Shown: positions 1,150-52,595, counted from the stretch's first letter. The stretch: DNA of 64,000 nucleotides from a virus (IMGVR_UViG_3300043409_001462:96001-160000); one strand, 5' to 3'. Notes: generated from the letters alone by a model not told the origin. Program-made: numbers and translations.

Positions 1150-2466
1150 ATGGTTGAAACTCTTATAATTAAAAATGCAAATCTTCCTAAGAAAGCTAAT
1201 AAAGAGCTTATTCTAGGTACATTTATTACAAAAGATTCGTACGATCGTGTTATCGAATCCGACTGCGATCTTTATGCCTGGAATCAAACAGGAATTAATA
1301 ACGAAGAAAATTTAATTTTTAAGTTTCGTAAAAATATTTTTACGAAAGAAGAATGTGATGCTGCATATGCTGGTTTGAGAGAAGCTGCTACAGAATCTCA
1401 AAATCGTGGTATGGCTGCTGGTCCTCGTGGCGACCAACTCGGTCAGGAAGGTCGTGGTAATCGCGACTGGGTTACTGCTGAGCAAGAAGATATTATTTCA
1501 TTTTTGAAACGTCCTCTCAATAGTATTGAAGATGGTACCAGCATCGAGTCTATTATTAATATGCGTGTCTCTTCTAATAAAGAAGAGACACGTGGGCGTG
1601 TGTGGCTTCGTTCAGAAGTTACTAAATTATACCCAGAGTATCATGGTTGGTTCGATCAGTGGCTTAATCGTATTAAGGATCTTTCGCGCGAAGAACAGCT
1701 TAAAGAAGCTTATAAGATTGATGATTTTATTTCTGAAACTAACTACGCTCAATCCGTAAAATCTGGTATTGCTGGATATTTTGACAGCTACCCACGTATA
1801 CCTTATGGGCGTGCTACATCATACACTGAAAAGAATCCTGAAAAGTTTGCACTTTGTTACCCTTATCTCCATAAGCTTAACGACCAGTTTCGCGAACTGA
1901 TTCCTAATAGATGGAAGGCGCAAAATGCAGAAGCAAACAAGCTTGACACAAGATTCCGTATTGATGGCACTGTCTTCACTACTCTTACTGTTAACCACAA
2001 CTGGCGTACTGCCTGCCACCGTGATGCTGGTGATCTCACTAGCGGTTTCAGCAATATTTGTGGCGTCACTGGCCCAGAAGGTAAGGGATGGCGTGGCGGT
2101 CAGTTTATTCTCCCTGAGTACAGGATTGCTATTAATCTCCAGCCTGGTGATATGTTGCTCGTCAATAATCATGAAGGAATCCACGGAAACGACGAGCTCA
2201 TTGGCGATGACAATGATCGTATGACTATCGTTGCATACTTCCGTGAGAAGATGACAGAACTTCAATCATGGGATTACGAAAAGCTTCGCAAGCAGTATAT
2301 TGATGAGCGTAGATTAAATAAGGATCATAAGTTCCAACGTCCTCTTTGGAATGGCGTTTCCCCTGCTATGTGGGTAGACCAAGAATGGTATGATTATATG
2401 AAAAAACATAATATGGCCGACCCTTATAAGAAGGAAGAGCAATCAACGTTGGATAGTTTCTTTTGA
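1150..2466 (+). CDS. TET/JBP-family 2OG-Fe(II) 5-methylpyrimidine dioxygenase
   Basis: FTTLTVN, HxD (TACHRDAGD), distal His (GIHGN), Arg (RMTIVAYFRE); GAGGAG RBS; neighbours are base-modification genes. Confidence 0.85.
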   Translation: MVETLIIKNANLPKKANKELILGTFITKDSYDRVIESDCDLYAWNQTGINNEENLIFKFRKNIFTKEECDAAYAGLREAATESQNRGMAAGPRGDQLGQEGRGNRDWVTAEQEDIISFLKRPLNSIEDGTSIESIINMRVSSNKEETRGRVWLRSEVTKLYPEYHGWFDQWLNRIKDLSREEQLKEAYKIDDFISETNYAQSVKSGIAGYFDSYPRIPYGRATSYTEKNPEKFALCYPYLHKLNDQFRELIPNRWKAQNAEANKLDTRFRIDGTVFTTLTVNHNWRTACHRDAGDLTSGFSNICGVTGPEGKGWRGGQFILPEYRIAINLQPGDMLLVNNHEGIHGNDELIGDDNDRMTIVAYFREKMTELQSWDYEKLRKQYIDERRLNKDHKFQRPLWNGVSPAMWVDQEWYDYMKKHNMADPYKKEEQSTLDSFF

Positions 2467-3242
2467 AAATCGCTAAAATTTGTAATGAGTGGGAGCTTCC
2501 GTTCAACTTCGACCTAAAGAGCGAGGAGAACGTAAGCCTCCACAATCGTTCATATCTTCATTATGCCGCCGAACACCCAGAACTTGTTTCTTCAAAGTGC
2601 TGGGCCACTAAATGGCTCCTTGAAGATATTATTGACATGTCTCAAACCTATACTGCTATCGAGTACATGGCAGGTATTGGTGTTCAAAGTCTTTTGATTC
2701 AAAAGCTCTTTAATCTAGAATTTCATGTTATGGGAGAGCTAGACGAAGGATGCGTCGAACATCTTTCTAGCATTGACTGGGACCATAAGGCGATTGTAAA
2801 ATGTCAAGATGCACAAAAGTCTTTGATGGAAGATAATAATTTTGATTTGAAGTTTCTTGATCTTCCTAACTCTAGTATCCTTCAGGTTACAACAAAGTGG
2901 AAAGATGGATTCAACAAATTGTTTGAATCTAACCCAAAGCTTGTTGTTTGGACAGATACATCTATCACGTATCCTATTTCTATTCATGGCGAGAAGTATG
3001 GTAATATCTTAGGTGCTAAACTCGATACAAAATTCGACTACATTAATTCATATTCAGCTTGGCTTTTTAGAAATTTCGGTTATACTATAAAGAGAGCTGC
3101 AATCAGAGGGACTAACGCTGTGTATTTTGCAGCAGTTCCTGGATTAGTGTCTACTACTATTTCTAGTTTCCCAATCGCTGAAAACGAAGGTGGGTTTTAT
3201 TTTATCGGAGAGGAAAAAAGCACTCTTGACAGTTTCTTCTAA
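2463..3242 (+). CDS. Putative class I SAM-dependent methyltransferase in DNA-modification cluster
   Basis: Motif I-like EYMAGIG, acidic motif II (ELD), DA, DLKFLDLP; no PC motif of C5-cytosine methyltransferases. Confidence 0.55.
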   Translation: MKIAKICNEWELPFNFDLKSEENVSLHNRSYLHYAAEHPELVSSKCWATKWLLEDIIDMSQTYTAIEYMAGIGVQSLLIQKLFNLEFHVMGELDEGCVEHLSSIDWDHKAIVKCQDAQKSLMEDNNFDLKFLDLPNSSILQVTTKWKDGFNKLFESNPKLVVWTDTSITYPISIHGEKYGNILGAKLDTKFDYINSYSAWLFRNFGYTIKRAAIRGTNAVYFAAVPGLVSTTISSFPIAENEGGFYFIGEEKSTLDSFF

Positions 3243-4386
3243 TCAAATTATCGGTCGCTGGTCAGAACTTAACAATCAACCAGAAATTTCAGATCTTAAA
3301 GCAGGTATGGATTTTCGAGAACCTCGTTATCGTCGAGAAGTATTTTTACGATTTTATGAATATCATTTGAAATATAAATCGCATCCTGGCGCTGTTTATT
3401 TTGCTATGCCATGGCTTGCTAAAAAATTAAATATGGACATGGAAACAAAGCTATGGTTTGCTTTTATCAATGGATGCTCTCAAAACATAGTTACAACTTA
3501 TATTATCTTTCAAAAATACCCTAATCTTAAAGAAGTTAAACTAGAACAGCTTTCTGAATGGTGGGGAGATAACCAGCATAAGTTCAAAGCTGGTTCTGGT
3601 TGGGATACAGATCGTAAATATTTCAAGTATGGGAAAACAGGATTCCCAAACTGTGTAAAGTCGTATAAAGAAAACGTTGATAAATTTGGATCACAGGTTG
3701 ACTTGTTCAACAGTTTAAGCTATACTAATGATAAGTCAAAAAACTTCCAAAATACCTGGGATTATGTTCGTAAGAACTTTATGACCTTTGGTCGTCTTTC
3801 TGCGTTTTCCTATCTTGAGTATTTACGTATTCAGGGTGTAAACTTAGATTGTGATAATCTTTTTCTAGAAGATATTGATGGTTCTCGTTCTCACCGTAAT
3901 GGTCTATGTAAAGTACTAGGTCGTGACGATCTTGACTGGTGGAAGCAGGATCTTAAGTATGATGCCGAAACTATCGAATGGTTGAAGGTAGAAGGCGAAA
4001 TGCTTCTTAATGAAGCAAAAGCTCGTTTTGGACATCTATATAAAGACGTTTCGTATTTTACATTAGAGTCAACTTTCTGTTGTTATAAATCTTGGCATAG
4101 ACCCAAGCGTCGTTATCCTAATGTATACATGGATATGTTCCATGATCGTATTAAGTATGCAGAGTCAGAGTGGGATATGAGTTTAGATTTGTTTTGGCAA
4201 ATGAGAAAAGAATGTTTGCCTGAACACCTGCGTTTAGAAGATAATCCTAAAGACCCAGGATTAGTTCCTGAAAAGCAAAATCATTATCTTACTACAGGAC
4301 AGGTGATAATGATGGATAAAGAGTGGGAATGTTTTGAAAACGATTTCTATGGTCCAAAAGGCATTGAACATTTTTATACGGAGTGA
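3226..4386 (+). CDS. Amino acid:DNA transferase-like protein (aGPT-Pplase2 family, HhH-glycosylase fold)
   Basis: WFAFING, WDTDRKY, FGRLSAFSYLEYL, SRSHRNGL, TLESTFCCYKSW; TTG start after GGAGAGG. Confidence 0.75.
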   Translation: MTVSSNQIIGRWSELNNQPEISDLKAGMDFREPRYRREVFLRFYEYHLKYKSHPGAVYFAMPWLAKKLNMDMETKLWFAFINGCSQNIVTTYIIFQKYPNLKEVKLEQLSEWWGDNQHKFKAGSGWDTDRKYFKYGKTGFPNCVKSYKENVDKFGSQVDLFNSLSYTNDKSKNFQNTWDYVRKNFMTFGRLSAFSYLEYLRIQGVNLDCDNLFLEDIDGSRSHRNGLCKVLGRDDLDWWKQDLKYDAETIEWLKVEGEMLLNEAKARFGHLYKDVSYFTLESTFCCYKSWHRPKRRYPNVYMDMFHDRIKYAESEWDMSLDLFWQMRKECLPEHLRLEDNPKDPGLVPEKQNHYLTTGQVIMMDKEWECFENDFYGPKGIEHFYTE

Positions 4387-4388
4387 CT

Positions 4389-4928
4389 ATGAAAGTTATA
4401 GCAATCGGTGGTAATCCAGGCAGTGGTAAGTCGACGCTGATGAAGCGTGTGATTGAGTATTACACTCCTGTAAAAAAGTATGATGAGTTTAAGTTGGTTC
4501 CTTACCTACAGAATAACAAAATTTACATTCTTGGTAAGTATGATGAAGGTGAAGTATTTTCTGGCACTGACCGTATGAGTATGGCAGTTCAGCCAGAGGC
4601 TATTAAATTTTTAGCTAGTCTTCCTGCTGATTCTATAGTATTATATGAAGGTGATAGATTGTTCACTGCTTCATTCCTAGAAGATTGTGCAGAGAAGTAT
4701 GAATTGAAGATTATTCATTTATCTACTTCTGTGGAAGTTCGTGAAGATCGTTACAAGGAACGTGGGAGCAACCAAAACGTTACATGGCTTCAGGGTCGTG
4801 AAAGTAAGATCAATAACATTTTGACGAATATGTCTCTATTATTTTTCGTAGACTCATTTCAAAACGACGACTGGTTTGAACAAGAAATTATATTTCAATC
4901 TATAATTAATGAGGTGAACAATGGATGA
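4389..4928 (+). CDS. P-loop nucleotide/5hmU-DNA kinase-like protein
   Basis: Walker A GNPGSGKS, GTDRMSMAVQP, EGDRL motifs of kinases associated with thymine hypermodification. Confidence 0.75.
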   Translation: MKVIAIGGNPGSGKSTLMKRVIEYYTPVKKYDEFKLVPYLQNNKIYILGKYDEGEVFSGTDRMSMAVQPEAIKFLASLPADSIVLYEGDRLFTASFLEDCAEKYELKIIHLSTSVEVREDRYKERGSNQNVTWLQGRESKINNILTNMSLLFFVDSFQNDDWFEQEIIFQSIINEVNNG

Positions 4929-5283
4929 TATTAAAGTTGTATATGGCCCAGCTGACAAATATGATACTAGCGTAACTGCTTCTTATGGAGAAACTGACTT
5001 GACTGGAAAAAATTTCTACAAATATGCTGAAAACAAAATTCTTGCAGATCTTTGTGACTATATAGATAAGACGTACGATCAACACTACATGTCTGAAAAT
5101 GATGTACAGTGTTTTGATGCGTGGATTGCTCTTGGAGATGCGACTCCTACCTTCCGTAATACAGCCTTGAAGTATCTTTGGCGTTATGGTAAGAAGAGCG
5201 GTAACAACAAAGATGACTTGATGAAGACCTTACATTACACACTGTTGTGTTTGTATAACGATCACTATAAGGATGTTAAATAA
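4921..5283 (+). CDS. DUF3310-like protein
   Basis: TYDQHY...NTALKYLWRYGKK...DLMKTLHY pattern. Confidence 0.7.
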   Translation: MDDIKVVYGPADKYDTSVTASYGETDLTGKNFYKYAENKILADLCDYIDKTYDQHYMSENDVQCFDAWIALGDATPTFRNTALKYLWRYGKKSGNNKDDLMKTLHYTLLCLYNDHYKDVK

Positions 5284-6137
5284 TGGAAATTAATGTACCA
5301 ATCGAAATGCTTCGTGAGCGGAAGCTTTTCGTCGCGACTCCAATGTATGGCGGTATGTGCGCTGGAATGTTTGCTAAGTCTACTGCCGACTTGTCTGCTA
5401 TTTGTACGCAGTATGGTATTCCCCTACAGTACTACTATCTCTTCAACGAGTCATTGATCACTCGTGCACGCAACTACTGTGTTGATGAGTTTATGCGTTC
5501 GGATGCTGAACATCTTATGTTTATTGATGCTGATATTGGTTTCAATCCTCAGGATGTTATTGCTCTTATGGCTTTGCAGGCACAGGAGCCAGATAAGTAT
5601 GATATCATTGGTGGACCTTATCCTAAGAAGTGCATCAGCTGGGAAAAGATTAAGCTTGCAGTTGATAAGGGTATGGCTGACGAAGATCCAAACGTACTAG
5701 AAAAGTTCGTTGGTGATTATGTTTTCAATCCTAAGAATAACACTGGATCTATTCCTCTTGGAGAGCCAGTAGAAGTTCTAGAGATTGGTACTGGTTTTAT
5801 GATGATCAGTAAGCAAGCTTTGACTAAGTTTAGAGATAGCTATCCTCAACTTAGCTATAAGCCTGATCACGTTCGTACTGAAGCTTTTGATGGGTCACGT
5901 GAAATCCTCCAGTATTTCCAGGCTGAGATTGATCCTGTTTCTAGACGTTACCTTTCAGAAGACTATTGGTTTTGTCAGAAGGTTCAGGCTATTGGTCTCA
6001 AGACTTGGTTCTGTCCTTGGATGAAGATGCAGCACGTTGGCTCTTACATCTTTGGTGGTTCGTTGTCAGATCTTGCGTCTATTGGGGCGGCAGCAACTGC
6101 TGATCCTAGTGCTCTTGGTGGTAAGAAGAAGAAGTGA
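5283..6137 (+). CDS. GT-A fold glycosyltransferase
   Basis: FVATPMYGG, ESLITRARN, DxD (FIDADIGF), GTGFMMI, LSEDYWFC. Confidence 0.8.
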   Translation: MEINVPIEMLRERKLFVATPMYGGMCAGMFAKSTADLSAICTQYGIPLQYYYLFNESLITRARNYCVDEFMRSDAEHLMFIDADIGFNPQDVIALMALQAQEPDKYDIIGGPYPKKCISWEKIKLAVDKGMADEDPNVLEKFVGDYVFNPKNNTGSIPLGEPVEVLEIGTGFMMISKQALTKFRDSYPQLSYKPDHVRTEAFDGSREILQYFQAEIDPVSRRYLSEDYWFCQKVQAIGLKTWFCPWMKMQHVGSYIFGGSLSDLASIGAAATADPSALGGKKKK

Positions 6138-6151
6138 AAAAGGAATATATC

Positions 6152-6814
6152 ATGAATCTTAATGTGAAGACTATCGAAATCCTCAAGAATTTTTACTCTA
6201 TCAATCCTTCGCTCGTCGTGAAGGAAGGTAACGTATTGACTACCATTTCAACTGGTAAGACAATCGTCGCCAAGGCGACTGTACCAGATACATTTAGTAA
6301 GCGTTTTGCTATGTATAATCTTGGTCGGTTTATTAATTCTGTTACCTCTTATGAGAAGGCGGAAATTACATTTAATGACACTAACGTTGTTATTAAGGAA
6401 ACTGATAAGAATGAGAGCACTCGTTTGGCTTATGCTGATGAGTCAGGTATCAAGGTTCCTCCTGAGAAGGCTATTAATCTTCCTACAATCGATGCTACCT
6501 GTAAGATTACTACTGTAGCTCTTCGCACTGTACAAAAGCAGCTTGGTATTCTTGATGTACCTGAAATTGCTGTTACTGGCGATGGAACAAATATCTATCT
6601 TCAAGCTGTTGATTCTAAGAACGTAAATAGTGATACATTTTCTATTGTTATTGGATCAACTGATCGCACATTCCGTGCTTTGTTCAAGGTTGAAAACATC
6701 AAGGTGATTCCTGGAGACTACGAAGTTGATATTTGTTCGAAGGGCATCTCCCACTTTAAGGGAGAAGGTATCGAATACTGGATTGCAGTCGAGGCAAATT
6801 CAACCTACAGTTAA
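6152..6814 (+). CDS. 45: Sliding clamp gp45
   Basis: TIEILKNFYSINPS N-terminus, FKVENIKVIPGDY, YWIAVE C-terminus; synteny with gp44/gp62. Confidence 0.92.
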   Translation: MNLNVKTIEILKNFYSINPSLVVKEGNVLTTISTGKTIVAKATVPDTFSKRFAMYNLGRFINSVTSYEKAEITFNDTNVVIKETDKNESTRLAYADESGIKVPPEKAINLPTIDATCKITTVALRTVQKQLGILDVPEIAVTGDGTNIYLQAVDSKNVNSDTFSIVIGSTDRTFRALFKVENIKVIPGDYEVDICSKGISHFKGEGIEYWIAVEANSTYS

Positions 6815-6817
6815 GGG

Positions 6818-6846
6818 TTGACTTTTTCTACGGGAGGAGCTATTAT
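6818..6846 (+). promoter_or_regulatory. Sigma70-like promoter with -10 inside an inverted repeat
   Basis: TTGACT-N17-TATTAT; GGGAGGAGC...GTTCCTCCC hairpin covers the -10. Confidence 0.65.
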
Positions 6847-6866
6847 AGTTCCTCCCACTTTATATT

Positions 6867-7427
6867 ATGAGGTATGTGATGCATATCGATGCAAAAAAGA
6901 AATTACTGATAACAGAAATTGTTAAGATAGGATTAAATATTCCTTTCCAATCAGTCAAAGCGAAAATTATTTATTTTAATGAAAATGGTTCTTTAGAACC
7001 AAGATTAAGTATGTCATTTTCACCGAATATTCCAATTAATTCAACAGGAATATACACAATATACGCATCAAAAGATGGAATTGATGAGTGTCTTTATGTT
7101 GGTGAATCTGCTTACTGTGTCAGTCAAAGAATCAGAAGGTTTTTCAAAGAGCTTACTGGTTGTAGTAATCCAAATGAAACTCATCCAGCTGCAACTAAAG
7201 CTAAAGAGAATCGATATTCTCTAGAATCACATACTTTTAAAGTAAAGTGGATTCCATGGCCTTCAATAATTGAAGCCGCTCTAAAATTCGATGTTAAATT
7301 TGACGATTATTTTATGAATAATTTAGATAGCGAAATATCTTATTTAGTTAAATCGAAGTATAATTGCACAACATATATGATGTACGGTTATAGTGCTGCA
7401 ACTCTAAAAGACTTTTTGGGAGTTTAA
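6867..7427 (+). CDS. GIY-YIG-like endonuclease
   Basis: TGIYTIY...LYVGES...QRIRRF. Confidence 0.6.
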   Translation: MRYVMHIDAKKKLLITEIVKIGLNIPFQSVKAKIIYFNENGSLEPRLSMSFSPNIPINSTGIYTIYASKDGIDECLYVGESAYCVSQRIRRFFKELTGCSNPNETHPAATKAKENRYSLESHTFKVKWIPWPSIIEAALKFDVKFDDYFMNNLDSEISYLVKSKYNCTTYMMYGYSAATLKDFLGV

Positions 7428-7428
7428 T

Positions 7429-8367
7429 ATGCTTGAAGAATTTCTCTGGGTTGAGAAGTATCGTCCTAAAACTGTTGAGGAAACTATCCTACCTGCTGAT
7501 CTCAAGGCTGTATTCCAACAGTTCGTCGATCAGAAGAACATTCCTAATCTAATCTTATCTGGTTCTGCAGGCGTTGGTAAAACAACTATCGCTCGAGCTA
7601 TGCTCGAACAACTCGAATGCGACTACATCGTAATCAATGGGTCTATGAATGGTGGCATTGACACTCTCCGAAATGAAATCCTCTCTTTCGCTTCATCCGT
7701 CTCACTCCAGGGTGGACGTAAATATGTCATTCTTGACGAAGCAGATTACCTCAACGCAAACTCTACCCAACCCGCTCTCCGAAATTTTATGGAAGAGTTC
7801 TCTCGAAACTGTGGTTTCATTCTCACATGCAACTTTAAAAACAGAATCATTGAACCGCTACATTCTCGGTGCTCTGTCGTAGACTTCAAGATCAGCAAGA
7901 AGGATATGGCCAAGCTCGCTATGCAGTTTATGAAGCGAGTCAACATTATTCTTAATACAGAAAACATCAAGTATGAGTCTGCTGTTGTTGCAGAGGTAAT
8001 CCAAAAGCATTTCCCTGATTGGCGTCGTGTTCTTAATGAGCTGCAACGCTATGCAGCTACAGGTTCTATTGACACTGGTATTCTTGCTAATATGCAGGAT
8101 ATATCGATCAAAGAACTGGTCGATCTCCTTAAGGACAAAAACTTTACTGAGATTCGCAAGTGGGTTGCTAATAATCCTGACTATGATCAAAACGAAATTT
8201 ATCGCAAGCTTTATGAGCAAGCTTGTAATTTCCTAGAGGCTACAGCTGTAGCGCAACTTGTATTGATTATAGCTAGGTATCAGTATCAGGCTGCTTTTTC
8301 TGCCAATGCAGAAATCAATCTCGTTGCTTGTTTGACTGAGGTTATGAAGGATTGTGAATTTCAATGA
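7429..8367 (+). CDS. 44: Clamp loader large subunit gp44
   Basis: WVEKYRP, Walker A GSAGVGKTT, ILDEAD, PLHSRC. Confidence 0.95.
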   Translation: MLEEFLWVEKYRPKTVEETILPADLKAVFQQFVDQKNIPNLILSGSAGVGKTTIARAMLEQLECDYIVINGSMNGGIDTLRNEILSFASSVSLQGGRKYVILDEADYLNANSTQPALRNFMEEFSRNCGFILTCNFKNRIIEPLHSRCSVVDFKISKKDMAKLAMQFMKRVNIILNTENIKYESAVVAEVIQKHFPDWRRVLNELQRYAATGSIDTGILANMQDISIKELVDLLKDKNFTEIRKWVANNPDYDQNEIYRKLYEQACNFLEATAVAQLVLIIARYQYQAAFSANAEINLVACLTEVMKDCEFQ

Positions 8368-8741
8368 GTCCATTCGACATTATCAATTCTATCACTTACA
8401 ACAAGAAGCGTTTGATTGACGATTCTAATGAGAAGATGTACAATGCGTATCAGGTAAATAAAGGTTTGTCTTATTTTAAAGACACAATCTTCATTGCTCA
8501 AGAAATGAACATGAATTATCATCTTGATAATTTGCTTCAGCATGACTATCTTTTCCATACCGTAAGGAAGCAGAAGAGATTTGCTAAGTGGGTTAAGAAA
8601 GACAAGGATGCTGATATTGAAGCTATCAAGATTTATTTCAATTATGGCTATCGTAAAGCGCAAGAAGCTTATTCGATCCTATCAAAAGATCAGCTTGAGT
8701 ACATAAAGGAAAAAGTCAAGGGTGGAGCTTGCAATCGATAA
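8364..8741 (+). CDS. 62: Clamp loader small subunit gp62
   Basis: NKGLSYF, RKQKRFAKW, IKIYFNYG; follows gp44. Confidence 0.9.
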   Translation: MSPFDIINSITYNKKRLIDDSNEKMYNAYQVNKGLSYFKDTIFIAQEMNMNYHLDNLLQHDYLFHTVRKQKRFAKWVKKDKDADIEAIKIYFNYGYRKAQEAYSILSKDQLEYIKEKVKGGACNR

Positions 8742-33124: not shown

Positions 33125-33185
33125 TTTTTTCAACGTAGTAGGGTATTATTGGTAACAGTGATGCCCTACACTCACATTCGGAGTT

Positions 33186-35654
33186 ATGATGAAGTTTTAC
33201 ACAAGTGTTTATCAGCGTGGAGATAAGATTTATGTTCGTGGTTATGAAGACGGTCAACGTGTAGAATTTATCGAGAAGTATAAGCCATACCTCTTTCTTC
33301 CTAAGAAGGATGGGTTTTATCGTACACTGGATGGTAAGCAAGTTGATAAAATGCAGTTCGAGTCTATTTCGGACGCACGTGATTTTTGTGAGAAATATAA
33401 AGACGTATCGAACTTTGATTATTATGGACTGAACAACTATCAATATGTGTTTATGTATGACTATTACAACGGCGAGATCAATTACGATCCGTCGATTATT
33501 TCAGTAGTAACTATCGATATCGAGTGTGCAGCTGACGAGGGATTTCCTGATATTCAGAAGGCTGATAAAGAAATCACAGCTATCACTCTACGTAAGAACG
33601 GTAAGAACATTGTGTTCGGATGTGGAGAATATATTGAGCACAATGATGAGACCAAGTATATTCGTTGCAAAGATGAATTCGAATTGCTTGATAAATTTAT
33701 CAAAGTGTGGAATCATCCTACTTGGAAGCCAGATGTTGTTACTGGTTGGAACATAGAGTTCTTCGACATTCCTTACACGGTCAATCGTATCAAGAACGTA
33801 CTAGGCATAGAGTATGCTAAGAAGCTATCTCCTTGGCTTATTCTTGACGAGAAAGAAGTTGAATTCAAAGGCAAAAAAAATCAAACATACACTCCAGCTG
33901 GTATTGCTGTTCTTGACTATTATCAGTTGTATCGTAAGTTTTCATTCGGTAACCAAGAGAACTATAAGCTAGATTATATTTCTCAAGTTGAGCTGGGCGA
34001 GCAAAAGATCGATTACTCTGAATATGGTTCATTGCTTGAATTGTATAAGAGTAACTTTCAAAAGTTTATCGAGTATAACATTCACGACTGTGTGCTTGTT
34101 GATAGGCTTGACGAAAAGCTTAAGTTCATTGAACAGGTTATGGCGTTGGCGTATGACGCAAAGGTAAACTATGGTGATACCATGACGACTGTTCGTCCAT
34201 GGGATGTAATTATTCATAACTATCTGCTTGATCGTCGTATTGTTATTCCTCAGTTCGAACCTTCTAGGCAGGAGTTCGAATTGGTTGGTGGTCATGTGAA
34301 GGAACCTGTCCCAGGTTTGTATAAGTGGGTTGTATCATTCGATTTGAACAGTCTGTATCCGCATTTGATTATGCAATATAATATCAGCCCAGAAACATTC
34401 ATTACCCGTTTACCTAACTTCAATTCAATTGATAGTTTGCTTGATGGGACAATGTCGCATAACTGCGAACATGCTATCGCAGCGAACGGTTGCATCTATC
34501 ATAAGGACAAGCAAGGGTTTCTACCTCAGCTTATGGAAACAATGTACGACGACCGTACAAAGTATAAGAAGCTAATGATTGAAGCCAAGAAGCGATATGA
34601 GGAAAGTCACTCTCGCGAGGACGAGATGTTGATTGCTCGTTATCATAATATGCAGATGGCCAAGAAGATTCAATTGAACTCAGCTTACGGTGCGCTTGGT
34701 AATAGATACTTCCGTTGGTTCAGCTTTAATAATGCAGAAGCTATCACTATGTCTGGTCAGCTTTCTATCCGTTGGATTGAGAAAAAGATGAACCAGTTTA
34801 TGAACAAGGTTTGTAAGACCAAGGGAATAGATTTTGTTGTTGCTTCTGATACCGACTCAATCTATGTTACCTTTGATAGATTGATCCCTGCAGGTAGCGA
34901 CGAACTTGAAGCAGTAAAGTTAATCGATCAGTTCTGCGAAACTAAAATTCAGCATTATATCAACTCATGCTACGACGAGCTAGCTGGTATGATGAATGCT
35001 TATCAGCAGAAGATGCAAATGAAACGCGAAACTATCGCTAACAAGGGCATCTGGCGTAAGAAGAAGATGTATATTTTAAATGCCTGGAACGTTGAAGGTG
35101 TTCAGTATGATAAACCAAAGCTGAAGATTCAGGGTATCGAAGCTGTTCGTTCTTCAACACCTCACGTCTGTCGCGAGAAAATTAAACAGGCGTTGGATAT
35201 CATTATGAATAAAGATGAAGAGACACTTCAAGCATTTATTGAAACGTTTCGTCAAGAGTTTCTTGAACTTCCTTTCGAGAAAGTCGCCTTTCCTCGTGGA
35301 ATTAAAGGTATGAGTAAGTATTCTAGTAAGAAAGAAATATATATCAAAGGTACACCTATTCAAGTTAAAGGTGCATTGCTTTTCAATAACCTACTGCAAA
35401 CTAAAGGTATGAAAAACATACCACCTATCATGGATGGTGATAAAGTTAGGTTTGCTTATCTCAAATTGCCTAATCCTATCGGTGATACTGTTATTGCAAC
35501 TCCTGATGAACTTCCGAAAGAATTCAAGCTTGATAAGTATATCGATCGCGAGATGCAATTCAATAAAAGTTTCGTAGAACCACTACGCTCAATCACAGAA
35601 GTTATCGACTGGGAAGTTGAGCAGAGAGCAACATTGGAGGATTTCTTTGGCTAA
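33186..35654 (+). CDS. 43: Family B DNA polymerase gp43
   Basis: Exo DIE, SFDLNSLYPH, KIQLNSAYG, DTDS; C-terminal TLEDFFG. Confidence 0.97.
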   Translation: MMKFYTSVYQRGDKIYVRGYEDGQRVEFIEKYKPYLFLPKKDGFYRTLDGKQVDKMQFESISDARDFCEKYKDVSNFDYYGLNNYQYVFMYDYYNGEINYDPSIISVVTIDIECAADEGFPDIQKADKEITAITLRKNGKNIVFGCGEYIEHNDETKYIRCKDEFELLDKFIKVWNHPTWKPDVVTGWNIEFFDIPYTVNRIKNVLGIEYAKKLSPWLILDEKEVEFKGKKNQTYTPAGIAVLDYYQLYRKFSFGNQENYKLDYISQVELGEQKIDYSEYGSLLELYKSNFQKFIEYNIHDCVLVDRLDEKLKFIEQVMALAYDAKVNYGDTMTTVRPWDVIIHNYLLDRRIVIPQFEPSRQEFELVGGHVKEPVPGLYKWVVSFDLNSLYPHLIMQYNISPETFITRLPNFNSIDSLLDGTMSHNCEHAIAANGCIYHKDKQGFLPQLMETMYDDRTKYKKLMIEAKKRYEESHSREDEMLIARYHNMQMAKKIQLNSAYGALGNRYFRWFSFNNAEAITMSGQLSIRWIEKKMNQFMNKVCKTKGIDFVVASDTDSIYVTFDRLIPAGSDELEAVKLIDQFCETKIQHYINSCYDELAGMMNAYQQKMQMKRETIANKGIWRKKKMYILNAWNVEGVQYDKPKLKIQGIEAVRSSTPHVCREKIKQALDIIMNKDEETLQAFIETFRQEFLELPFEKVAFPRGIKGMSKYSSKKEIYIKGTPIQVKGALLFNNLLQTKGMKNIPPIMDGDKVRFAYLKLPNPIGDTVIATPDELPKEFKLDKYIDREMQFNKSFVEPLRSITEVIDWEVEQRATLEDFFG

Positions 35655-51892: not shown

Positions 51893-52595
51893 AATTATTG
51901 CTGTTACACAGCCATTGATACATAAAAGTGGCGATGTTATATATGACGAATCTGGATTTATTATTGGTGAGGCTGATGGTTTAAAACTTACAGTCGATGA
52001 ATTTATCGCCTATGTTGCTCGTGTATCTAATCCAGGTAATCAACATAACACCTTGACTGCACCAAAGCTGCTTCGTTATCTTGCCAAGCATAAGCACTGG
52101 TCGCCATTCGAGATGGTTAATGTGGTTATGGAGATAAATACGACTAGAGATATTGGTCGTCAGATCCTTCGCCATCGTTCCTTCACCTTCCAGGAGTTTA
52201 GTCAACGCTATGCAGATCCAACCAAAGATATGGGGTTTACCGTTCGTGAAGCCCGTTTACAAGATATATCCAATCGACAAAATTCCGTCGAAACGGACGA
52301 TGAAGCAATTCAAAAAAGATGGATTGACCAACAAAATTGGGTCAGAGAACTCTCAATGCAAGTCTATCAGGAAGCAATCGCAAACGGAATTGCCAAGGAG
52401 CAAGCACGTGCTGTCTTACCAGAAGGACTTATTCTTAGCCGCATGTATATGGCTGGCAGTCTTCGCTCTTGGATTCATTATTGCCAACTGAGATCTGGTA
52501 TTGAAACGCAGAAAGAACATCGTGAAATTGCTCTTGATGCTTGGTATCAGATTACTGAGCACTTCCCATCTCTTAAGGATGCCCTGGATATATAA
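51879..52595 (+). CDS. thyX: Flavin-dependent thymidylate synthase
   Basis: HWSPFE, RHRSFTFQEFSQRY, EQARAVLP, TQKEHR. Confidence 0.95.
   Translation: MMPAKIIAVTQPLIHKSGDVIYDESGFIIGEADGLKLTVDEFIAYVARVSNPGNQHNTLTAPKLLRYLAKHKHWSPFEMVNVVMEINTTRDIGRQILRHRSFTFQEFSQRYADPTKDMGFTVREARLQDISNRQNSVETDDEAIQKRWIDQQNWVRELSMQVYQEAIANGIAKEQARAVLPEGLILSRMYMAGSLRSWIHYCQLRSGIETQKEHREIALDAWYQITEHFPSLKDALDI

Follow-up and report, generated by a model that had tools for sequence, protein, structure and literature searches.

A probable post-replicative thymine hypermodification cassette with polymerase-like, candidate clamp-binding tails in a T4-like phage

Introduction

How might a phage that makes ordinary thymidylate come to carry a modified thymine in its DNA, and which of its genes would do the work? 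This question is raised by a locus of the viral genome IMGVR_UViG_3300043409_001462, of which we analysed positions 96001-160000 (64,000 nucleotides; the window, whose own numbering is used below). Here genes for a Tet/JBP dioxygenase (TET), a methyltransferase-fold protein (MT), an amino-acid:DNA transferase (AADT), a P-loop kinase and a glycosyltransferase (GT) follow one another between positions 1150 and 6137. An initial annotation had read these genes as a candidate pathway in which thymine is oxidised within DNA to 5-hydroxymethyluracil (5hmU), activated, substituted with an amine or amino acid, and then methylated or glycosylated. The source record is a genome of 173,384 bp with a CheckV completeness of 100%, and its gene content is that of a T4-like phage. 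We conclude that the locus is probably a post-replicative thymine hypermodification cassette of such a phage, with some of its enzymes perhaps tethered to the sliding clamp by their C-terminal tails. Post-replicative thymine hypermodification thus stands as the best reading, given intact TET, AADT and kinase motifs, a flavin-dependent thymidylate synthase, the lack of a hydroxymethylase or cytosine-5 methyltransferase (C5-MTase), and inheritance of the genes as a block; the glycosylation part of the initial proposal is not supported, and the GT gene is not a member of the cassette.

The pathway type is already published, and the initial annotation had itself cautioned that similar neighbourhoods might have been predicted. 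Lee et al. (2021) reported metavirome contigs with a TET_JBP gene beside thymine hypermodification genes, where it replaces the deoxyuridine monophosphate (dUMP) hydroxymethylase (their Fig. 2, sequences 22-25), and put forward the idea that TET_JBP forms 5hmU in situ (PMC8989533), and O'Toole et al. (2026) connected T-dioxygenases of clade C1 with GATases, P-loop kinases and AADTs (PMC13229309). The premise that characterised phage TETs work only on 5-methylcytosine (5mC) is outdated, because phage T-dioxygenases that make 5hmU in DNA have been characterised (PMC13229309; TET89 in PMC8256090).

Core enzymes and the supply of thymine

By open reading frame (ORF) calls all of the genes named initially are real and lie on the + strand. 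Six closely packed genes fill the interval between a MazG-like gene (623-1111) and the gene of a gp45-like sliding clamp (6152-6814), and the stop and start codons of the cassette genes overlap. Profile searches for Tet_JBP, AADT and P-loop kinase families, which had been suggested as a check, gave matches above the Pfam cut-offs for all three. The TET gene (1150-2466, +), by family that of a 5-methylpyrimidine dioxygenase and our candidate for the conversion of thymine to 5hmU, scored 69 bits against Pfam Tet_JBP (PF12851) in the window and 72 bits on the genome, with a cut-off of 34.9, and matched phrog_24024 at 3e-137. Its ATG at 1150 is preceded 7 nt upstream by GAGGAG, with an alternative start at 1135, and the family comprises 2266 clusters. 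H290-x-D292, H345 and R357 were invariant in 13 sequences reaching down to 36% identity, and from the motif pattern we infer that H290, D292 and H345 are the Fe(II) ligands and R357 the 2-oxoglutarate arginine.

Homologues of this TET in Stenotrophomonas phage DLP6 (L001; KU682439.2:27179-28525), Caulobacter phage Cr30 and S-CBWM1 are annotated as 'SNF2 DNA repair protein', with identities to the window protein of 38-46% in DLP6 and Cr30 and 28% in S-CBWM1. The proteins so labelled are Tet/JBP dioxygenases, so these phages may contain 5hmU or a derivative of it. A TET of this clade is found in DLP6 and Cr30 and in a further cultured relative, C48C1.

The AADT gene (3190-4386, +), which belongs to aGPT-Pplase clade 2 and is the only AADT gene in the whole genome, scored 70.5 bits against Pfam ADDT (PF18724; cut-off 26.2) over profile positions 10-228 of 232. 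Its start is ambiguous between GTG 3190, TTG 3226 behind GGAGAGG, and ATG 3307. Numbered from the last of these, E254 and C258 form a Glu/Cys pair (TLESTFCC) that was invariant in nine AADTs, including ViI-like PhiSH19 gp159, and mutation of the essential Cys and its neighbouring Glu kills both M6 gp51 and ViI gp247 (PMC8989533). The P-loop kinase (4383-4928, +), our proposed 5hmU DNA kinase, scored 46.4 bits against Ploopntkinase3 (PF18751; cut-off 27) and has the Walker A motif GGNPGSGKST. It is followed by a DUF3310 protein (4921-5283, +), which falls just under the Pfam cut-off (23.6 against 24 bits) and matches PHROG families that contain fusions of DUF3310 with nucleotide kinases. This protein accompanies the kinase in T4-like cassettes, being present in the sister phages L042 and L044 and absent from a third, L040, and from DLP6.

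As annotated initially, the window also encodes the flavin-dependent thymidylate synthase ThyX (51996-52571, +, the coordinates of its Pfam Thy1 match; 126.5 bits, 8.8e-38), and its presence implies that the phage makes ordinary deoxythymidine monophosphate (dTMP). A check of the rest of the genome for a dUMP hydroxymethylase or C5-MTase had been advised, and neither was found in the complete sequence: across all 173 kb there was no match to Thymidylat_synt, the family of the dUMP and deoxycytidine monophosphate (dCMP) hydroxymethylases, and none to DNA_methylase (PF00145, C5-MTase). Likewise, ParB_N had no match at E<=1 in the whole genome. Given ThyX and the lack of a hydroxymethylase, replication would proceed with normal deoxythymidine triphosphate (dTTP). 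A nucleotide search with the cassette against cultured phages gave no match, and when TET, AADT and the MT profile were searched against PDB sequences no useful match emerged.

A methyltransferase-fold protein inherited with its transferase

Between TET and AADT lies the gene of MT (2463-3242, +; 259 aa), whose AlphaFold model (pLDDT 89.7) has a class I S-adenosylmethionine (SAM)-dependent methyltransferase fold. In VIA comparisons the model matched Trm1 (3axt) with a Z of 15.5 and a root-mean-square deviation of 4.3 over 216 aligned residues, followed by RsmD-like proteins, Trm5, TYW2, RlmL/K and TrmM; more than 400 chains were at Z>=8, every one listed being a methyltransferase, and Foldseek concurred. 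Motif I (EYMAGIG) is conserved, with E67, G71 and G73 invariant, and the acidic motif II residues E92 and D94 are nearly so; motif I, in the form E-Y/F-x-G/A-G-x-G, and the acidic motif II are kept even in distant members. The C5 Pro-Cys motif is missing, as had been noticed initially: motif IV reads D-L-P-N/S-S-S (DLPNSS in the window protein), and there is no Cys in the motif VI region. RrnaAD gave sub-threshold matches in 8 of 23 relatives (best E 3e-4). The family has 37 close clusters, and 273 representative clusters in a large library, none of which has a Pfam domain. As identities for MT, a C5-MTase and a ParB-like activator were both considered and ruled out, given the methyltransferase fold, a motif IV without Cys and a genome without ParB_N.

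We examined the company that this gene keeps. An MT relative is encoded by 35 related IMG/VR loci, and in every one with enough DNA the genes for TET, MT, AADT and kinase occur together, usually in the same order. In the distant, siphovirus-like L047 the order is TET, MT, AADT, then portal and terminase, then the kinase. In the equally siphovirus-like and distant L048 (L048:2523-7401) the genes run ParB_N, TET-like (under the Pfam threshold), a weak match to a pyridoxal phosphate (PLP) enzyme, MT, AADT, kinase and terminase, which means that ParB and MT are able to coexist in one cassette.

The sister phages reveal what can be exchanged. In L042 and L044 the order is MazG, TET (73% identical to that of the window), intervening genes, AADT, kinase (66-69%), DUF3310 protein (72-73%), GT-like gene (79-87%) and clamp. 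In place of MT they have a GATase, an amidoligase-like gene, and a phosphatase or GNAT, and their AADT is only 30% identical to ours. MT is therefore absent where the AADT is of another clade; it goes with the type of AADT, which fits a tailoring step. In L040 (L040:1350-6984, from a 156,867 bp ENA contig) the same slot holds a ThyA-family gene of 218 aa, a dCMP deaminase, an AGT-family glucosyltransferase, an epimerase, a UDP-glucose dehydrogenase and a C5-MTase. The MazG-like gene is conserved 5' of these differing cassettes in L040, L042 and L044, while DLP6 has kept TET and GT without MT, AADT or kinase. From this comparison of gene content, the slot between the MazG gene and the GT and clamp genes is a swappable DNA-modification island, in which TET, kinase and DUF3310 protein are the constant parts and MT with its AADT clade is one exchangeable pair. 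The nearest folds to MT are N-methyltransferases acting on amino groups and MT tracks the AADT clade, and for these reasons we propose that it methylates the appended amine.

It is unlikely that MT is instead an accessory or activator of the dioxygenase in the role of ParB, perhaps as a presenter of DNA or a bridge to the clamp. An activator would suit the overlap of the MT gene with the TET stop (2463 against 2466), the identical tail of the two proteins, the lack of ParB in the genome, a non-canonical motif IV that distant members have lost, and the inactivity reported for ParB-less clade C1 enzymes alone (PMC13229309). However, TETs of 73% identity occur in cassettes that do without any MT and L048 has a ParB_N protein and an MT both, which together make this role less likely. 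Furthermore, distant members too retain SAM motif I and the acidic motif II, and MT co-varies with the AADT clade and not with TET.

The glycosyltransferase gene

The last of the six genes (5283-6137, +; 284 aa, PHROG 1574) encodes a GT with a GT-A fold, assigned by Foldseek and a DxD motif: its model has a pLDDT of 73.8, the Foldseek matches in the PDB are GT-A enzymes throughout (STIV A197, LH3, GtrB), with 2c0n the best at 1.5e-6, and D82-x-D84 is invariant. The family runs to over 8000 clusters, of which hundreds exceed 80% identity, as against 37 for MT. It occurs in phages phiM12, phiN3, phiM7 and OC, in which tblastn finds no TET; in L040 a GT 83% identical to ours adjoins the quite different, TET-less cassette; and it is missing beside the cassette in some other contexts, such as L026 and L029. 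The abundance of these homologues, the persistence of GT beside an unrelated cassette and its occurrence in phages without TET place it outside the cassette. GT is, on this distribution, a backbone gene of the lineage and not a member of the pathway, and a link to glycosylation is unsupported.

We accordingly consider it quite improbable that the enzyme glycosylates 5hmU or the appended group to give a sugar-bearing, base-J-like thymine. Such a product would suit the GT-A fold with its intact DxD motif, the position of the gene in the same operon directly 3' of the cassette, the retention in DLP6 of TET and GT alone, and the finding that no other kind of gene neighbours 5mYOX genes more often than GTs do (PMC13229309). 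Against it stand the number of GT homologues, which far exceeds that of the cassette, the L040 gene beside its ThyA-like, AGT and C5-MTase cassette, the TET-less phages phiM12, phiN3 and OC, its absence beside the cassette in contexts such as L026 and L029, and the lack of a clamp-type tail (see below) in all of 120 GT members.

GT also has a Lys-rich C-terminus (LGGKKKK), and few genes of the region are as well conserved, with 80-94% identity in hundreds of clusters.

A cytosine pathway, in which the dioxygenase acts on 5mC and the kinase and transferase elaborate 5-hydroxymethylcytosine (5hmC), is very improbable: 5mC is indeed the substrate of characterised clade A/B phage TETs, for some contigs Burke et al. 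considered P-loop kinases as possible 5hmC kinases (PMC8256090), and the MT-fold gene occupies the C5-MTase position of those clusters, but the complete genome has no PF00145 match, MT lacks both the motif IV Pro-Cys and a motif VI Cys, the sister phage with a C5-MTase in the same slot (L040) has no TET, 5hmU is the base on which the reactions of AADT and kinase were demonstrated (PMC8989533), and a C5-MTase is found in only 6% of 5mYOX neighbourhoods (PMC13229309).

C-terminal tails and the sliding clamp

Three of the cassette enzymes end in short, similar tails. TET and MT both end in STLDSFF (2443-2463 and 3219-3239), and AADT ends in KGIEHFYTE (4357-4383), of which GIEHFYTE resembles the others. 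The family B, gp43-like DNA polymerase of the phage (33162-35654, +; Pfam DNA_pol_B and exo1) ends in ATLEDFFG. Across the genome a strict form of the motif ends 4 of 158 + strand ORFs of at least 100 aa, namely those of the polymerase, TET, MT and AADT, against 0.59 expected (Poisson p about 0.003 by our own arithmetic), and a relaxed form ends 5 of 479 genome ORFs, the fifth being ORF 6867-7427. The codons of the two STLDSFF tails differ at five of seven positions.

The tail was carried by 97-103 of 120 close TETs, by 24 of 37 close MTs, by 5-6 of 146 distant MT representatives and, as noted, by no GT-like protein. Sister phages have it on TET, AADT, a 363-aa protein, the AGT glucosyltransferase and the C5-MTase (in L040, ATLASFF on the AGT and TNLSQFI on the C5-MTase). 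It is absent from their small-molecule enzymes (epimerase, dehydrogenase, deaminase, ThyA-like protein, GATase) and from the kinase, and the kinase of the window likewise has no clamp-type tail. In siphovirus-like contigs and mycobacteriophage Prince, where there is no gp45 context, we did not find it on TET, MT or AADT. In DLP6 the polymerase ends in ATLDSFFA and TET in ATLGDFFV; this pairing was checked among relatives in DLP6 only, the four other contigs being fragments without a polymerase gene.

The 363-aa protein (L042:7976-9067), a protein of no family in a GATase-type sister cassette, has the clamp-type ending GSLECFMM, suggesting a role on DNA for it as well.

In T4 the clamp gp45 is bound by the C-termini of gp43, gp55 and gp33, hydrophobic-acidic motifs that can stand in for one another (PMC2988020). 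The tails described here are likewise short and hydrophobic-acidic, lie at the very C-terminus behind a variable linker, and recur on the DNA polymerase of the same phage; unlike those of T4, they sit on enzymes that modify DNA bases, and their binding to the clamp is hypothetical. A complex prediction for the clamp trimer with MT gave an ipSAE of 0.60 in three runs (best control 0.02), with contacts agreeing by at least 89% across runs and a partner pLDDT of at least 79, and is rated as weak support. The mark that it passed is passed by 58 of 80 solved complexes and 2 of 110 mismatched pairs, scores at or under 0.60 being those of 7 of the 80 solved complexes and of both passing mismatches. 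As a structure of the RB69 clamp with the polymerase peptide has been solved, the pass may stem from that known structure. We regard tethering of TET, MT and AADT to gp45 by their tails as a well-motivated hypothesis, not a result.

Proposed pathway and relation to known systems

Put together, these observations suggest the following order of events. The genome would be replicated with normal dTTP, after which the Tet/JBP dioxygenase would convert T within DNA to 5hmU by oxidation. Phosphorylation of the 5hmU would fall to the P-loop kinase, possibly together with the DUF3310 protein, and the Cys/Glu pair of AADT would swap the phosphate for an amino acid or amine; P-loop kinases are known to phosphorylate 5hmU in DNA, and AADTs to displace the phosphate with glycine or serine by way of Cys and Glu (PMC8989533). 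In the weakest step MT would tailor the appended group, most likely by N-methylation, to yield an uncharacterised base. TET, MT and AADT would be held by their tails on the gp45 clamp, which is encoded at the end of the operon; we propose that the clamp gene is co-transcribed with the cassette.

Several points weigh against this reading. We infer all three of the substrate (T or 5mC), the nucleophile and the final base. Clade C1 TETs without ParB were inactive on T and 5mC in E. coli (PMC13229309, PMC8256090). MT of the window matched no curated family in Pfam or NCBIfam, and its motif IV is non-canonical and, but for the Asp, lost in distant relatives. The clamp-MT prediction is weak, and as the interface was not part of its output the contact is not assignable to the tail. 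The kinase acts on DNA yet lacks a tail, so tethering is not universal, and in a recent preprint the T4 glucosyltransferases showed no binding to gp45, a claimed interaction of alpha-GT with gp45 not being reproduced (10.64898/2025.12.06.692756).

Among known systems, the locus resembles the ParB-dependent clusters (PMC13229309) in having a Tet/JBP gene without a C5-MTase beside an AADT and a Ploopntkinase3-type kinase, in its post-replicative logic and in the normal supply of dTMP. In cluster B mycobacteriophage Prince the gene order is ParB, thymidine hydroxylase, AADT, kinase, and the AADT of the window is 39% and its kinase about 30% identical to the mycobacteriophage proteins. However, the window genome has no ParB, an MT-fold gene follows TET, the phage is a T4-like myovirus with the cassette next to the clamp gene, and, unlike the mycobacteriophage proteins, its enzymes carry polymerase-like C-terminal tails.

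With the ViI, M6, PaMx11 and phiW-14 pathways (PMC8989533) it shares the core of kinase and AADT, the Glu/Cys pair and modular tailoring genes. In those cultured phages 5-hydroxymethyldeoxyuridine is made before replication by a ThyA-family enzyme, which is absent from the window genome, and tailoring is by PLP decarboxylases, radical SAM isomerases, flavin lyases and acetyltransferases, with no SAM methyltransferase of the MT family. The sister cassettes L042 and L044 are alike in gene order and in the tails of TET and AADT, and differ in having the genes described above instead of MT and an AADT of a different clade.

The clade C/D clusters of C5-MTase and TET described by Burke et al. (2021; PMC8256090) are also alike in placing an MT-like gene beside TET together with a kinase and a transferase. 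Their contigs 72, 80 and 86 have a P-loop kinase and an aG/PT-PPlase with T4-type neighbours, and the enzymes were inactive on 5mC in E. coli (PMC8256090). Unlike our MT, which has Asn/Ser at that position, their MT-like proteins were picked by BLAST for C5-MTase similarity and keep the motif IV Cys, a distinction that we draw from their description.

The locus is thus distinct in having no ParB, an orphan MT family with its own AADT clade, a T4-like modification island, and tails. Neither an orphan MT family co-varying with an AADT clade nor polymerase-like tails on TET, MT and AADT were met in the literature cited here. TET, MT-fold protein, AADT and kinase form a defined four-gene core, and since the MT family is unnamed and the AADT clade distinct, the product is probably an uncharacterised thymine derivative. 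As a site where whole cassettes are swapped, the MazG-clamp slot would be a natural library for new base chemistries.

We tentatively extend this to a wider proposal, to which we give somewhat less than even odds: in T4-like phages a polymerase-type tail would recruit modifying enzymes (T-dioxygenase, AADT and MT-fold protein here, AGT and C5-MTase in sister phages) to fresh DNA by way of gp45. The clamp would thereby replace the ParB-like CTP clamp for the dioxygenase, explaining the inactive ParB-less clade C1 enzymes, and MT with its AADT clade would give an undescribed thymine derivative such as an N-methylated aminoacyl-thymine. Some phage T-dioxygenases may possibly have been inactive alone because they need the phage sliding clamp, and, if so, adding gp45 and its loader would unlock the reconstitution of many silent pathways. 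If the proposal is true, base modification in phages is tied to the replication fork as DNMT1 is coupled to PCNA in eukaryotes.

Genes around the cassette

The genes for UvsW, gp55, gp47 and gp46 lie just 5' of the window. They are followed, still upstream of it, by three genes behind gp46 encoding proteins of 344 aa and 205 aa and a 223-aa cupin (L046:6944-9259; G000:C1:92944-95259). These were considered as conserved parts of the pathway and ruled out, since they are specific to this genome and every MT-type relative whose sequence reaches far enough upstream lacks them. The MazG-like nucleotide pyrophosphohydrolase (623-1111, +; Pfam PRA-PH, 7.5e-22) is a backbone gene that forms the upstream edge of the variable slot and lies outside the cassette, and a promoter-like site at 1084-1112 stands ahead of TET. 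The nearest cultured relatives of the polymerase (33162-35654) are cyanomyophage polymerases, at 52-54% identity.

On the 3' side are the genes for the gp45 clamp, the gp44/gp62 loader (7429-8741) and RegA. The clamp gene (6152-6814, +; Pfam gp45-slide_C, phrog_223 at 4e-62), whose start was set from its homologues, is followed by a terminator-like hairpin at 6832-6856. ORF 6867-7427 (+; 186 aa), which separates the clamp gene from the loader genes, ends in the polymerase-like AATLKDFLGV. Pfam and PHROG contain no family that it matches; a nuclease tethered to the clamp is one possibility, an insert resembling homing endonucleases another.

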